Origin: a virus
Taxonomy: Monodnaviria > Loebvirae > Hofneiviricota > Faserviricetes > Tubulavirales > Inoviridae
Strand: one strand, 5' to 3'
Length of the DNA: 7,923 nucleotides
IMG/VR virus record: IMGVR_UViG_2651869724_000001
Span: 1-7,923 of that record
A model generated the notes under the pieces. The model was not told the DNA's origin. It saw nothing but the letters and a program-made list of their open reading frames with translations, and made no database searches. Below, piece by piece: positions 1-7,923 of the stretch; the first letter of the stretch is position 1; every line of letters begins with the position of its first letter. Position numbers and translations under genes: made by a program.

Positions 1-1062
<1,062 letters not shown>

Positions 1063-1070
1063 TCACCCTC

Positions 1071-1361
<291 letters not shown>

Positions 1362-1375
1362 TCACCACCTGATTA

Positions 1376-3025
<1,650 letters not shown>

Positions 3026-3029
3026 TTCA

Positions 3030-3200
3030 TCACCAGTAAAAACTAAATGGTTTTACAATTCGACGGAAATCCTGATCGGCTTTTTCAAGAATAACTGAAA
3101 CAACATATTCTTCAATGGTTGTATTTTTATTGTAAATAATTCTTTCTATCTGCTCGATAGTGTATTCTGGCAATTTAACTTTAAATTCTTGAGTAGACAT
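3030..3200 (-). CDS. 56-aa hypothetical protein, possible ribbon-helix-helix fold; absent from the ORF track (below its length cutoff)
   Basis: Minus-strand ATG at 3200-3198 is 5 nt after GAGGT. Translation: [56 protein letters not shown]. Its TGA at 3032-3030 lies 4 nt before the pIII ATG (TGATGAAATG). The strand-helix-helix spacing is my reading of the sequence, not a search result. Confidence 0.35.
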
Positions 3201-3292
3201 AAAACCTCACAAATTAGATTTAAAGCCAATGACGCAACATAACCCACAAAGGGAACCAAACATCATAAAAATAAAATCAAACATAAATATCC

Positions 3293-3316
3293 AAAAAAAG
3301 GGCGGAATATCCGCCC
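3293..3316 (-). terminator. Rho-independent terminator after the major coat gene
   Basis: Perfect 7-bp stem gggcgga (3300-3306) / tccgccc (3310-3316) with a 3-nt loop. On the minus-strand transcript it is followed by a 7-U tract (plus-strand A run 3293-3299). Sits 19 nt past the pVIII stop, as in Ff phages. Confidence 0.55.
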
Positions 3317-3334
3317 TTCCTCATAAAAAACAAC

Positions 3335-3583
3335 TCAGATACTTCTGATGGCTCCCCATACTTTACGAACGCCAGCAAAAGTCAGATAAACTGTAACTCC
3401 TGCAACACCGATAGAAAGAATAACAGCAGAAACAGAAGACATATCAATGCTGTTAGTCAATGATGAAAAATCGACTGTACCAGCAAAAGACGGAGATACA
3501 GCAAGAGCAGAAGCAGCGGAAAAAGATAAAGCTGCAACTTTCTTATCAACACCCTTAAAAAAATTGGTCATTTTTGCAAACAT
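3335..3583 (-). CDS. Major coat protein (pVIII-like) precursor, 82 aa
   Basis: AAGGAG lies 8 nt upstream of the ATG at 3583-3581. Signal-like N-terminus MFAKMTNFFKGVDKKVAALSFSAASALAVSPSFA, then a short mature part with a hydrophobic core and basic C-terminus (RKVWGAIRSI). The listed 102-aa ORF (to 3643) extends upstream with no RBS. Confidence 0.6.
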   Translation of the reverse strand: MFAKMTNFFKGVDKKVAALSFSAASALAVSPSFAGTVDFSSLTNSIDMSSVSAVILSIGVAGVTVYLTFAGVRKVWGAIRSI

Positions 3584-3585
3584 AA

Positions 3586-3759
3586 TTAAAGTCTCCTTAT
3601 TAAACTCCAAATTGTGGAAATAATCATGCCAAGAAAAAAACAAAATACTGGCAGTGAAAATCCCGTTAAAAACGCCGAGGAATAAATCCCCGACACATCA
3701 GGTATCCCCACGCAAATAGCATTAATTTGCGTGGAAACTGAATCCGAATTAACAGACAT
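3586..3759 (-). CDS. 57-aa small hydrophobic protein in the pVII/pIX slot (candidate minor coat protein)
   Basis: ATG at 3759-3757 follows 4 nt after the TAG of the upstream gene. Translation MSVNSDSVSTQINAICVGIPDVSGIYSSAFLTGFSLPVFCFFLGMIISTIWSLIRRL has a hydrophobic C-terminal half and basic end. Its TAA (3588-3586) lies inside the pVIII RBS region. Below the ORF-track cutoff. Confidence 0.35.
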   Translation of the reverse strand: MSVNSDSVSTQINAICVGIPDVSGIYSSAFLTGFSLPVFCFFLGMIISTIWSLIRRL

Positions 3760-3763
3760 AAAA

Positions 3764-5600
<1,837 letters not shown>

Positions 5601-5636
5601 TAATCACCTTCTATTGAAAGGACATAGAGGTAAATT

Positions 5637-5852
5637 TTGATGAAAAAAGAAACAAAGCGCGGAGACACAACCGTAAGGATTAACGAAAACAGAAAACTGG
5701 AGCTAAAACGAAGAGTGCTGGAAATCGGTAATAAAACAGGTGAGCTACTAAAACCATCAGAGATAGTAAACCACTTAATAGACAACTACTTAGATGATGC
5801 GGTGAAAGATCTAATAAGCAAAGAAGAACTTAAGAAAAAAAAGGCAATGTGA
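5637..5852 (+). CDS. Ribbon-helix-helix-like DNA-binding regulator (71 aa), candidate phage repressor
   Basis: Listed ORF with AGAGG 8-10 nt upstream. TTVRINENRKLELKRRVLEIG...KPSEIVNHLIDNYL reads as strand-helix-helix. Divergent from the phage operon, the position taken by repressors such as RstR in CTXphi-type phages. Confidence 0.45.
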   Translation: MMKKETKRGDTTVRINENRKLELKRRVLEIGNKTGELLKPSEIVNHLIDNYLDDAVKDLISKEELKKKKAM

Positions 5853-5908
5853 TCCCTTTTCCTGCATTCAGCAGACTACCCGCGAAGGATCGAAAGGATA
5901 CGGTTTAA

Positions 5909-6142
<234 letters not shown>

Positions 6143-6193
6143 TAAAGGAATGTAGAGTCCCGACAGGATTAACAACATCAGCTCAGAAAAACC

Positions 6194-6334
6194 ATGCACG
6201 ACATGATTCTGGATTTACTAATGAAATACCTGATTGCCGGTAGTCTGTTCGGCATGTTTTTGTTCAGCGTCATAACAATAGTGTTGCCAATCGTCCTGAG
6301 GGCACACAATAAAATCAACAGAAGCAACGACTGA
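6194..6334 (+). CDS. 46-aa hypothetical small membrane protein
   Basis: ATG at 6194, TGA at 6332-6334. MHDMILDLLMKYLIAGSLFGMFLFSVITIVLPIVLRAHNKINRSND has one predicted transmembrane helix and a basic tail. No clear Shine-Dalgarno; below the ORF-track cutoff. Confidence 0.25.
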   Translation: MHDMILDLLMKYLIAGSLFGMFLFSVITIVLPIVLRAHNKINRSND

Positions 6335-6343
6335 ATACACAAC

Positions 6344-6371
6344 AGTGCGCACAATGGCGTTATGTATAAAA
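6344..6371. other. dif-like candidate XerC/XerD recombination site (possible prophage attachment junction)
   Basis: AGTGCGCACAA-TGGCGT-TATGTATAAAA compared with E. coli dif GGTGCGCATAA-TGTATA-TTATGTTAAAT. XerC-arm-like half matches 9/11. XerD-arm-like half matches 8/11 only if the central region is 5 bp, and 5/11 with canonical 11-6-11 spacing. Confidence 0.3.
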
Positions 6372-6410
6372 AGGCCGCTGCGGTGGAAAGTATCGCAGCG
6401 GCCTTTTCAA
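6366..6410. terminator. Bidirectional rho-independent terminator
   Basis: Perfect 12-bp stem aaggccgctgcg (6371-6382) / cgcagcggcctt (6394-6405) with 11-nt loop, flanked by an A run (6366-6372) and a T run (6404-6407). Confidence 0.5.
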
Positions 6411-6517
6411 CATAACGCGTGTCACATTATGTGCACCAATATTGTAACAGCAAAGTTGTAATGTCCGCCTTGGGCTAAGTTAAGATGTCCGGCGTGTATA
6501 ATCAAGTAAGGATTACC

Positions 6518-7048
6518 ATGACGGCTCTCGCAGCGGAGTTTTTCACTTTGGATGAAGTTAACCGACTCAAGATTATTCAGGACGTCATCGACCGGCGTCT
6601 GACAACACAGATGGCAGCGCAGCGGCTTGGTATCTCCGACCGCCAGTGCCGTCGTCTGCTTGCGCGTTATCGTGAAGATGGTCCGCTTGGCATGACCAGC
6701 CGCCGTCGTGGTAAATCCAGCAATAATCAGCTGCCTCAGGGACTGGCCGCATACGCGCTGAATATTATTCGCGAACGCTATAACGATTTCGGTCCGACTC
6801 TGGCCTGTGAAAAACTGGCTGAGGTTCACGGCGTTCATATTTCCAAAGAAACGGTTCGTAAGTTGATGACTCAGGCCAGTCTTTGGGTTCCACGTAAGCA
6901 ACGTGCACCAAAAATCCAGCAGCCGCGTTACCGACGTGCCTGTGCCGGTGAACTCATACAAATTGACGGCTGCGACCATCACTGGTTTGAAAACCGGGGA
7001 CCCAAGTGTAAGCACTGGTTTACGTTGATGACGCCACCAGTCGTCTGA
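6518..7048 (+). CDS. Transposase N-terminal segment (HTH DNA-binding region), ending at a frameshift
   Basis: ATG at 6518 (MTALAAEFF...) lies 5 nt after AAGGAT; the listed ORF starts at 6485. HTH-like TTQMAAQRLGISDRQCRRLLARYREDG. The frame ends ...IQIDGCDHHWFENRGPKCKHWFTLMTPPVV, while the -1 frame opens at 7012 and reads ALVYVDDATSRL. Confidence 0.55.
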   Translation: MTALAAEFFTLDEVNRLKIIQDVIDRRLTTQMAAQRLGISDRQCRRLLARYREDGPLGMTSRRRGKSSNNQLPQGLAAYALNIIRERYNDFGPTLACEKLAEVHGVHISKETVRKLMTQASLWVPRKQRAPKIQQPRYRRACAGELIQIDGCDHHWFENRGPKCKHWFTLMTPPVV

Positions 7049-7923
7049 TGCAGCTTCGTTTCGTAAAATCTGAATCGACTTTCACCTATTTTGAAGCGAC
7101 ACGGGGCTATATTGAAATGCATGGTAAGCCACTGGCGCTCTATAGCGACAAAGCCAGTGTCTTCAGGATCAACAATAAAAATGCCACTGGCGGCGAAGGC
7201 GAAACGCAGTTTGGACGTGCGATGCACGAACTGAACATTCAAACCATCTGTGCAGAAACCAGCGCAGCAAAAGGTCGTGTTGAGCGGGCGCATCTAACCC
7301 TTCAGGACAGACTGGTCAAGGAACTCAGGCTTCAGGGCATCAGCACAATGGAATCTGCTAACGCATTTGCCGAAGAGTTCATGAACGATTACAACCGACG
7401 TTTTTCAAAAGCGCCTCGCCAGGAGTTCGATGTTCATCGGGAACTGGATGTCGATGATGATCTTGATATGGTGTTTACTTGGCGTGAAGCCCGCCGCGTG
7501 TCGAAATCACTCACTGTGCAGTACGACAAAGTGCTTTACCTCATTGAAGACAATGAGTTCAGTCGTCGGGCGATTGGTAAATACATTGATGTCTGGCATT
7601 ACCCTGACGGACATAAAGAGCTCCGGCTTAATGGCGTATCACTTCCCTACTCCACCTATGACAAACTGTCTGAAATCGATCAGGGTGCCATTGTGGACAA
7701 TAAACGTCTTGGCCGTGCGCTGGAGATGGCGCAACTTGTGCAGGCCGAACGGGATAATAACCGGTCACAATCAGTGCCATCCGGTGACGGCCCTTCACGC
7801 AGGCGCAAAGCCCCTACGACGAAGAAATCCCAGCGTTCTTTGGACCAGGACGATATGTTCAATGCACTTGTAAAACTTCAGACACGAGCTGAGGAGATTT
7901 TTGGTGAACGCAACCAAAAATGA
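7048..7923 (+). CDS. Transposase catalytic-core segment (rve/DDE integrase fold); reading frame is open from 7012
   Basis: DDE-like motifs: LVYVDDATSRL (encoded 7015-7047, upstream of the listed ATG), LYSDKASVF, and AETSAAKGRVERAHLTLQ. The TGA falls at 7921-7923, the window end. Confidence 0.55.
   Translation: MQLRFVKSESTFTYFEATRGYIEMHGKPLALYSDKASVFRINNKNATGGEGETQFGRAMHELNIQTICAETSAAKGRVERAHLTLQDRLVKELRLQGISTMESANAFAEEFMNDYNRRFSKAPRQEFDVHRELDVDDDLDMVFTWREARRVSKSLTVQYDKVLYLIEDNEFSRRAIGKYIDVWHYPDGHKELRLNGVSLPYSTYDKLSEIDQGAIVDNKRLGRALEMAQLVQAERDNNRSQSVPSGDGPSRRRKAPTTKKSQRSLDQDDMFNALVKLQTRAEEIFGERNQK

Follow-up and report, generated by a model that had tools for sequence, protein, structure and literature searches.

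A probable CTXphi-type, two-site attachment region at the dif-integrated end of a filamentous prophage of Escherichia coli

One of the filamentous phages exploiting the Xer recombinases of their hosts is CTXphi of Vibrio cholerae, whose attachment region consists of two inverted sites 90 bp apart, attP1 with a 12-bp central region and attP2 with one of 5-7 bp (PMC4246890). Neither of these sites works as a duplex; the plus single strand of the phage folds into a structure called attP(+) (PMC4246890, reviewing Val et al. 2005). In this reaction XerC alone performs one strand exchange, the specificity of which comes from the bases beside the XerC arm, and integration is completed by replication and is irreversible (PMC4246890). 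Ypfphi, a phage of Yersinia pestis, and CUS-1phi, from E. coli O18:K1:H7, have been listed as phages of the CTX type (PMC4246890). For Ypfphi an inverted pair of sites binding XerC and XerD, a regenerated dif and tandem arrays have been described, and this phage and CUS-1 are 99% identical over 7.1 kb (PMC4266046).

The DNA considered here, called the window below, is a stretch of 7,923 nucleotides from a virus record of the Inoviridae (IMGVR_UViG_2651869724_000001). A first-pass annotation had described a dif-like site at 6344-6371, at the apparent prophage boundary, and had suggested integration by XerCD next to dif. It is now considered that positions 6344-6437 very probably make up the whole attachment region of a filamentous phage that exploits Xer in the manner of CTXphi, in its integrated form. 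This region is made of two dif-like sites, site A (the one flagged earlier, 6344-6370) and site B, with a stem-loop between them. The features concerned are as follows.

1-6426, minus strand: right-hand 6.4 kb of a 7.95-kb filamentous prophage, recognised by gene content and genome comparison
6344-6354, plus strand: XerC-like arm of site A, AGTGCGCACAA, 9/11 against the dif XerC arm GGTGCGCATAA
6355-6359, plus strand: spacer of site A, TGGCG, 5 nt, set by dif-arm scoring
6360-6370, plus strand: XerD-like arm of site A, TTATGTATAAA, 8/11 against the dif XerD arm TTATGTTAAAT, pairing with 6405-6415
6373-6403, either strand: GC-rich stem-loop, GGCCGCTGCG, an 11-nt loop and CGCAGCGGCC, seen in the sequence, the folds and the relatives
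6405-6415, minus strand: XerD arm of site B, TTATGTTGAAA, phage-derived, 9/11 against the dif XerD arm, invariant in 15 relatives
6416-6426, minus strand: spacer of site B, TGTGACACGCG, 11 nt, phage-derived, with TGACAC bulged in the fold
6427-6437, minus strand: XerC arm of site B, GGTGCACATAA, the host dif arm left at the prophage end, with the crossover at or within it by junction comparison
6438-6442, either strand: AATAT, host dif flank (K-12: ...GCGCACC AATAT AAACC) and target duplication of the IS
6443-7923, plus strand: left inverted repeat TGTAACAGCAAAGTTGTAATGTCCG and transposase of an IS1202-family element (ISAba32 subgroup), assigned from contig L036 (see below), PMC10132070 and bioRxiv 10.1101/2022.12.17.520857

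The minus strand of the prophage carries a partial Zot/pI-like gene, a DUF2523 gene, a gene for a 549-aa adsorption-protein candidate, small coat-like ORFs and a Rep_trans gene, and the regulatory side is found on the plus strand. The full 7.95-kb unit comprises secretin, Zot, DUF2523 and Rep_trans genes with small ORFs, and no integrase or other element-encoded recombinase was found in it; the window itself ends inside the IS. By megablast against complete E. coli genomes the phage part, from 1 to about 6440, is matched at 99-99.9% in about ten genomes, and in none of the complete E. coli genomes does the match at that place pass 6446. E. coli O166:H15 JNE21-003 and RIVM_C039227 contain the 7,952-bp phage unit in tandem, adjoining hipA, and the JNE21-003 phage is 99.9% identical to that of the window. 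Contig JZXK01000052.1 (L036), reached through the exact sequence of the 549-aa protein, is 99.975% identical to the whole window, the phage/IS junction included. A megablast of the whole window against a phage collection gave no match, the phage being known only as a prophage in the collections searched, and a literature search for this specific prophage (E24377A and the hipA/dif setting included) found nothing relevant.

The phage is a mosaic. Its morphogenesis module is common to a prophage of S21EC, a tandem lysogen, having a different Rep, an SSB and an HTH regulator, its replication module is common to a prophage of E24377A, and the two-site attP is retained in all of them, across different replication modules. 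The block from the 549-aa protein to the secretin occurs with three replication modules when the loci L005, L008 and L037 are compared with the window: Rep_trans, a phage/plasmid replication protein with SSB and HTH, and Phage_GPA beside an IS110-family transposase. Directly upstream of site A there is an unannotated hydrophobic ORF of 46 aa (6194-6334, plus strand, MHDMILDLLMKYLIAGSLFGMFLFSVITIVLPIVLRAHNKINRSND), absent from the S21EC variant and with a weakly similar ORF at the same position in E24377A; it may be a cargo gene for a small membrane protein. The segment 5900-6145 looks non-coding and contains two short perfect hairpins, GGAAAC..GTTTCC and CCCCGT..ACGGGG, followed by a GC-rich tract, partly conserved in the S21EC variant; this segment is a candidate replication origin or packaging signal.

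Integration at dif can be read directly from the junctions. In K-12 the site adjoining hipA is empty and reads ...gacatg ATTTAACATAA TATACA TTATGCGCACC aatataaacc, which is dif with its XerC arm toward hipA. In JNE21-003 the same phage is inserted there; in the window orientation, with a slash for the boundary, the array end away from hipA reads ATTTAACATAATATACATTATGCGCAC/Tgttatcaggactg (Tgttatcagg), the phage-phage tandem junction reads ...TTTCAACATAA CGCGTGTCACA TTATGCGCAC/Tgttatcaggactg (Tgttatcagg) and the hipA-side end reads ...TTTCAACATAA CGCGTGTCACA TTATGCGCAC/Caacataaacc. Judged by these alignments, strands were exchanged with dif inside the XerC arm that both have in common (6427-6437 of site B) or at its edge. 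At the far prophage end of JNE21-003 dif has been rebuilt at 27 of 28 positions, and toward hipA the dif XerC arm remains, joined to the 11-nt spacer and the XerD arm of the phage, beside an intact site A. When cleavage by XerC of the minus strand and of the dif top strand is worked through, both observed ends are reproduced exactly. The L036 prophage is a single copy with a regenerated dif (27/28, AGTGCGCATAATGTATATTATGTTAAAT) just past the secretin gene, which is the second dif-like site that was to be looked for beyond position 1, and its flanks are hipBA, tam, yneE and uxaB, as in E. coli. With near-identical copies sitting at dif beside hipA, with junctions of XerC-side recombination and with an empty counterpart in K-12, the suggestion of XerCD-mediated integration at dif has become near-certain. 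Two observations on the L036 flanks can be added: hipA is called there (3565-4347) as a truncated gene of only 260 aa in the lineage of the window, and on the XerD side of the regenerated dif, at 14703-20890, four large genes (507, 554, 845 and 167 aa) have no Pfam match and are also present in L037.

The same junctions shift the boundary. The dif-like site at 6344-6371 is real, but the prophage does not end there; the junction falls within 6427-6437, some 56-66 bp further right. It could be argued that 6344-6371 is itself a recombined junction, an attL or attR ending the prophage, for it matches dif at 17 of 22 arm positions and is near the prophage end. This is hardly credible, since the phage sequence continues unchanged through site A to 6426 in the tandem junctions and in all integrated copies, and it is not until the outermost base of the XerC arm of site B that phage and host sequence part. 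The sequence of site A is the same in tandem copies, equivalent to the circular form, and in terminal integrated copies, and consequently site A is uncut. Its counterpart in CTXphi is attP2; it is an inverted partner left uncut, and neither a recombined junction nor the attachment core.

To score such sites, every position of both strands was scanned with both arms of the reference E. coli dif (GGTGCGCATAA TGTATA TTATGTTAAAT) and spacers of 4-13 nt, and the scores were compared with 300 dinucleotide-preserving shuffles. Site A, with 17/22 arm positions, is the second-best match in the window. Its XerC-like arm agrees with the dif arm at 9 of 11 positions, with the very bases described before. 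The XerD-like half is weaker, as had been noticed, at 8/11 with a 5-nt spacer; the spacer had been called ambiguous, yet the half falls to 5/11 at 6 nt, and the spacer is therefore 5 nt. A score of at least 17/22 was reached in 38 of the 300 shuffled windows (13%), so that site A taken alone is within chance and not significant. This is the point for a chance resemblance, in which the palindromic GTGCGCAC happens to stand beside an AT-rich stretch with no link to Xer, as the first-pass annotation had warned. Such an explanation has become very improbable. Site A is real because it has an inverted partner scoring 19/22, which no shuffle of the 300 attained, because both sites join in one hairpin (z = -7.8 to -10.6), and because the pair is conserved across eight genera of Enterobacterales; it also lies directly at the dif junction.

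The partner is the best dif-like match in the window, located at 6405-6437 on the minus strand and reading GGTGCACATAA TGTGACACGCG TTATGTTGAAA with an 11-nt spacer. The true crossover site is thus one that was missing from the earlier list. Sites A and B are inverted with respect to each other, 33-34 nt apart with the GC-rich stem-loop between, and both are present in the tandem, circular-equivalent junction. From the junctions the own site B of the phage is AGTGCGCATAA-TGTGACACGCG-TTATGTTGAAA. Its spacer opens with the same three bases, TGT, as the dif central region TGTATA and is otherwise unrelated to it. Position 6432 is T (A in the arm, for G), the one change of the host-derived XerC arm against E. 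coli dif. The variant is found in L036 too, and the resulting arm GGTGCACATAA is the same as at the Y. pestis host junction (L034); the change is probably neutral, in a site which no longer serves dimer resolution. A Yersinia origin of the window, suggested by this common arm, was dismissed, since hipBA-tam-yneE-uxaB in the L036 flanks is the E. coli arrangement and the 5-bp flank agrees with K-12. A plasmid Xer site as the origin of the T at 6432 and of the AATAT flank was considered because of plasmid matches starting at 6427, and was ruled out, the plasmid site being different (TTATATGTACC AAGTC) and the BLAST alignment having been extended through mismatches.

What lies between the sites had been described as a terminator followed immediately by an IS. 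A GC hairpin does follow site A, at 6373-6403, whereas the IS begins only at 6443, past site B and a 5-bp duplication. Nor does the hairpin appear to be a plain terminator, for it sits between the two sites and is predicted to form the top of the attP stem. It has T-runs on the flanks of both strands, and its stem pairs are kept in 14-15 of 15 relatives. A simple terminator scan left it uncalled because its 11-nt loop is beyond the limit of the scan, the sole call being a weak site at 6235-6254. In the double-stranded (replicative or tandem) form the stem-loop is probably a bidirectional terminator as well, separating the secretin operon from the regulatory ORFs of the plus strand that converge on it, and such a role is compatible with its part in attP.

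The predicted folding of this region gives the attachment site a defined shape. The minus strand of the circular or tandem form folds as DNA at -42.9 kcal/mol, with shuffles at -14.3 +/- 2.7 (z = -10.6), and the window copy at -33.4 kcal/mol (z = -7.8); both folds are a single hairpin with a 6-nt bulge, in which site A, the stem-loop and site B form one stem. In the circular form the base is an 11-bp XerC-arm stem with one T/G mismatch, the middle is a central region of 2 + 3 bp around the 6-nt bulge TGACAC, and the upper part is the XerD-arm stem followed by a 10-bp GC stem and the 11-nt loop. The XerC-like arm of site A pairs at 10 of 11 positions with the phage XerC arm AGTGCGCATAA of the tandem junction and is the bottom strand of the XerC-arm duplex once the strand folds; the folded minus strand has both the XerC and the XerD arm rebuilt as duplex. 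The window copy folds alike although it carries the host-derived arm with T at 6432. In total the attP region takes 94 nt and is almost fully paired. Filamentous phages package the strand on which their genes are sense. The strand bearing the cleavable XerC-arm^TGT is the sense strand for the rep, coat and zot/assembly genes, and from this gene polarity the packaged strand would be the minus strand of the window. Since a single-strand mechanism requires XerC-arm^TGT on the gene-sense strand, the observed polarity counts in its favour.

The arrangement is widely conserved. A 126-nt attP query against 5,426 complete E. coli genomes found related sequences in 929 of them (about 17%), mostly at 80-90% identity, and the chromosomal relatives adjoin hipA in the examples inspected. 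The CUS-1-like prophage of ST131 has the same layout, GGTTCGCACAA TGACG TTATGCTAAAG, hairpin, TTTCAACATAA CGAGTCGTACA TTATGCGCACC, and dif has been regenerated at the far end of that prophage. When both strands of species-representative genomes (596 Gb) were scanned for an exact 18-mer, for which about 17 matches are expected by chance, 20 loci were returned, eight of them in unrelated taxa and lacking the rest of the site. The same structure was recognised in Yersinia pestis (a Ypfphi tandem with host junctions), Lelliottia, Phytobacter, Photorhabdus, Kluyvera, Pectobacterium and Erwinia, making with Escherichia eight genera of Enterobacterales; Kosakonia and Serratia have truncated attP remnants only.

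Fifteen distinct sequences from Escherichia, Yersinia, Lelliottia, Photorhabdus, Pectobacterium, Erwinia and Kluyvera were aligned, the Phytobacter copy being the same as an E. coli one. The order of arm, 5 nt, arm, hairpin, arm, 10-11 nt and arm is common to all 15. The short spacer is always 5 nt (TGACG or TAACG in the relatives), and the long one is 11 nt (10 in one relative) and begins with TGT in 15/15. Across the alignment 94.2% of cells are paired, against 29-52% with slid partners, a figure to be read with the facts that G-T, a mismatch in DNA, was scored as a pair and that the family, 89% identical on average per column, is too uniform for strong covariation statistics. Three stem pairs show a compensatory change, with both sides changed. 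One of the three is arm position 4, where the window-type phage has G:C and Pectobacterium T:A, while CUS-1/Ypfphi have a G/A mismatch. A covariation between the site-A arm and the phage XerC arm in the CUS-1-like prophage of ST131 was considered and rejected: the phage arm there is GGTGCGCATAA, and the G/A mismatch is real and uncompensated.

Relatives of this attP were also met outside chromosomes. On plasmids of ColV/IncF type there is a CUS-1-like remnant, at 6001-6069 of locus L007 (pAPEC-O2-211A-ColV) and at about 480 other plasmid places, in which site A and the hairpin are kept together with a portion of the XerD arm of site B; the remnant adjoins genes of the ECs_2282 family and is ended by nested ends of an IS annotated as ISNCY-family. 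The same plasmid has a separate Xer-type site at 3073-3105 of L007, with an ISNCY-annotated IS 5 bp away. A contig labelled as a Candidatus Nanosynbacter MAG (L023, JARKOR010000214.1) shows a CUS-1-like attP and, next to it, the flank found on the hipA side in E. coli; most likely the contig belongs to E. coli and was misbinned.

From the structure, its conservation and the analogy with CTXphi, integration through a single-strand hairpin is likely, at a confidence close to that given to the attachment region itself. In the packaged single strand sites A and B would pair into one long hairpin with duplex XerC and XerD arms and a partly bulged centre, and host XerC and XerD, as in CTXphi, would bind the folded site. 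XerC would then cut the site-B strand between GGTGCGCATAA and TGT and exchange it with the top strand of chromosomal dif. Since homology with the dif central region TGTATA is limited to TGT, XerD would be unable to complete the reaction; catalysis would be by XerC only and the junction would be resolved by replication. One product would be a non-functional hybrid (dif XerC arm, phage 11-nt spacer and phage XerD arm) with an intact site A on the hipA side, the arrangement seen in the window, and the other a regenerated dif at the opposite end. The single-stranded substrate, the XerC-only catalysis and the resolution by replication are here transferred from CTXphi; to our knowledge the single-strand integration pathway has been demonstrated for CTXphi only.

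Several observations speak against the folded single strand. The same junctions are expected if site B recombined as double-stranded DNA, the XerC-arm stem of CUS-1-like copies has a G/A mismatch with the E. coli-type arm, the loop between the sites is 33 nt as opposed to about 90 nt in CTXphi, and the central region is partly paired (5 bp and a 6-nt bulge). The folded attP of CTXphi has a more open bubble in its central region. In addition, the lineage of the window has a single prophage copy, and hence CTXphi-style rolling-circle production from tandem copies could not operate there.

The main rival is accordingly a VGJphi-like integration in which site B recombines alone as double-stranded DNA and site A merely flanks a bidirectional terminator. 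The junctions fit a double-stranded exchange on the XerC side equally well, and a GC hairpin with T-runs on both sides resembles an ordinary terminator between convergent transcription units. This alternative is nevertheless improbable. In every relative site B has a spacer of 10-11 bp, and the 12-bp spacer of CTXphi attP1 is unusable as a duplex, while attP regions of the VGJ type are single sites (PMC4246890). By the blocking effect described for CTXphi (PMC4246890), spacers of 11 nt (10 in one relative) and 5 nt would leave neither site usable as a duplex. Moreover, the dif-like arms of site A, its 5-nt spacer and its complementarity to site B are kept across eight genera and across replication modules, and the flank of a terminator has no reason for such conservation. 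Recombination at site B alone leaves both the inverted partner and the 11-nt spacer unexplained, and the single-strand hairpin is preferred.

The IS next to the attachment region belongs with a group having its own relation to Xer sites. The ISAba32 subgroup of the IS1202 family has been named "dif-site hunters", its members having the left inverted repeat 5-6 bp from an XerC arm, a fixed orientation and a direct repeat of 5-6 bp (PMC10132070; bioRxiv 10.1101/2022.12.17.520857). The element of the window starts at 6443, 5 bp past the XerC arm ending at 6437, in the orientation of the subgroup and with the 5-bp repeat AATAT. In L036 (minus strand, about 4425-6583) it is 2,158 bp long, ends with ...GCTTTGACA and has AATAT as a direct repeat on both sides, this repeat being the native dif flank; it also carries a truncated DUF3800-like passenger. 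The transposase is split into two ORFs, 6518-7048 (176 aa) and 7048-7923 (291 aa), overlapping in TGATG at 7045-7048, and a 99.5% identical plasmid copy of the IS has a single ORF of 468 aa; the same split in L036 marks a frameshift of the lineage and not a read error of the window. On large plasmids the same IS lies 5 bp from the Xer-type site ATTTAACATAA TCCTCG TTATATGTACC, and other IS, annotated as ISNCY-family, have the same 5-bp distance to an XerC arm in RIVM_C039227 and also on a ColV plasmid. Targeting of an IS beside the XerC arm was seen at three other Xer-type sites (L002, L007 and L015). The element resembles the subgroup in its transposase of about 468 aa with an N-terminal HTH and in its passenger, some members such as ISKpn21 having passenger genes; it differs in that the Xer site beside it is a hybrid of phage and dif whose spacer measures 11 bp, and in that the transposase is frameshifted in the lineage of the window. 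The IS may have been inserted beside an intact dif before the phage arrived.

The design of this attP is of an already known type, and nothing conceptually new is contained in it. It explains how a prophage comes to lie at the replication terminus without an integrase, and the regeneration of dif at the far end explains why chromosome dimer resolution survives. The boundary annotation is corrected as well, the junction being the second inverted site and the "terminator" belonging to the attachment structure. It can be said that one attP design is common to filamentous phages differing in replication and morphogenesis genes in at least eight enterobacterial genera. A joint reading, in which this phage group is a natural E. 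coli counterpart of the single-strand pathway of CTXphi tuned to E. coli dif and in which the IS targeted the dead hybrid, is tentative and rather doubtful. Were it true, IS1202-family "dif hunters" would need only an XerC arm or bound XerC and not a functional Xer site, the restored G:C of the site-A arm (G/A in CUS-1/Ypfphi) would be the basis of the tuning, and the compact, almost fully paired attP of 94 nt would be a convenient model and tool for E. coli.

CTXphi is among the closest of the described systems. Common to both are two inverted sites, one with a long spacer (12 bp in CTXphi, 11 here) and one with a short (5-7 and 5), a plus-sense single strand predicted to fold into a hairpin with rebuilt arms, homology to dif only beside the XerC arm, an integrated form in which one end has the dead hybrid and the intact partner while dif is regenerated at the opposite one, the lack of an integrase, and tandem arrays, found here in relatives of the window prophage. 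The differences are that the host is E. coli with a single dif, that the sites are 33 nt apart and not about 90, the interval being itself a perfect 10-bp GC stem, that most of the central region is paired, around a 6-nt bulge, that the phage encodes its own secretin, and that the single-strand pathway is here deduced from the sequence and a predicted fold.

Ypfphi and CUS-1 are likewise among the closest systems, and the comparison made with them at the outset was right in kind, the attP being of the same family. Site A, hairpin and site B align at about 82-86% with the window in the same architecture, integration is at dif, which is regenerated, and the gene order is the same, including Zot, DUF2523 and secretin. 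In contrast, the proteins are distant: Zot is 33%, DUF2523 49% and the 102-aa ORF 34% identical, no counterpart of the 549-aa or Rep protein of the window was found in the comparison with Ypfphi/CUS-1, and the Rep_trans annotation here stands against a II/X-family one in the CUS-1-like prophage. The site-A XerC-like arm of the window has C where CUS-1/Ypfphi have A, giving G:C with the E. coli-type arm and not a G/A mismatch, and the spacer sequences differ. On these alignments the phage stands outside the CUS-1/Ypfphi lineage, with only the attP region related (82-86%).

VGJphi and TLCphi likewise use host XerCD and dif, and VGJphi also relies on catalysis by XerC (PMC4246890). VGJphi integrates reversibly through one double-stranded attP (PMC4246890), whereas two inverted sites are present here. 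A phage of the VGJphi type would show a single duplex attP with a centre of about 7 bp and two competent flanking sites; the spacers found are of 5 and 11 nt, and the hipA-side hybrid retains the 11-nt one. In TLCphi the first strand exchange is made by XerD (PMC4246890), while the crossover of the window phage is on the XerC side, and both of its sites have XerD-like arms (8/11 and 9/11).
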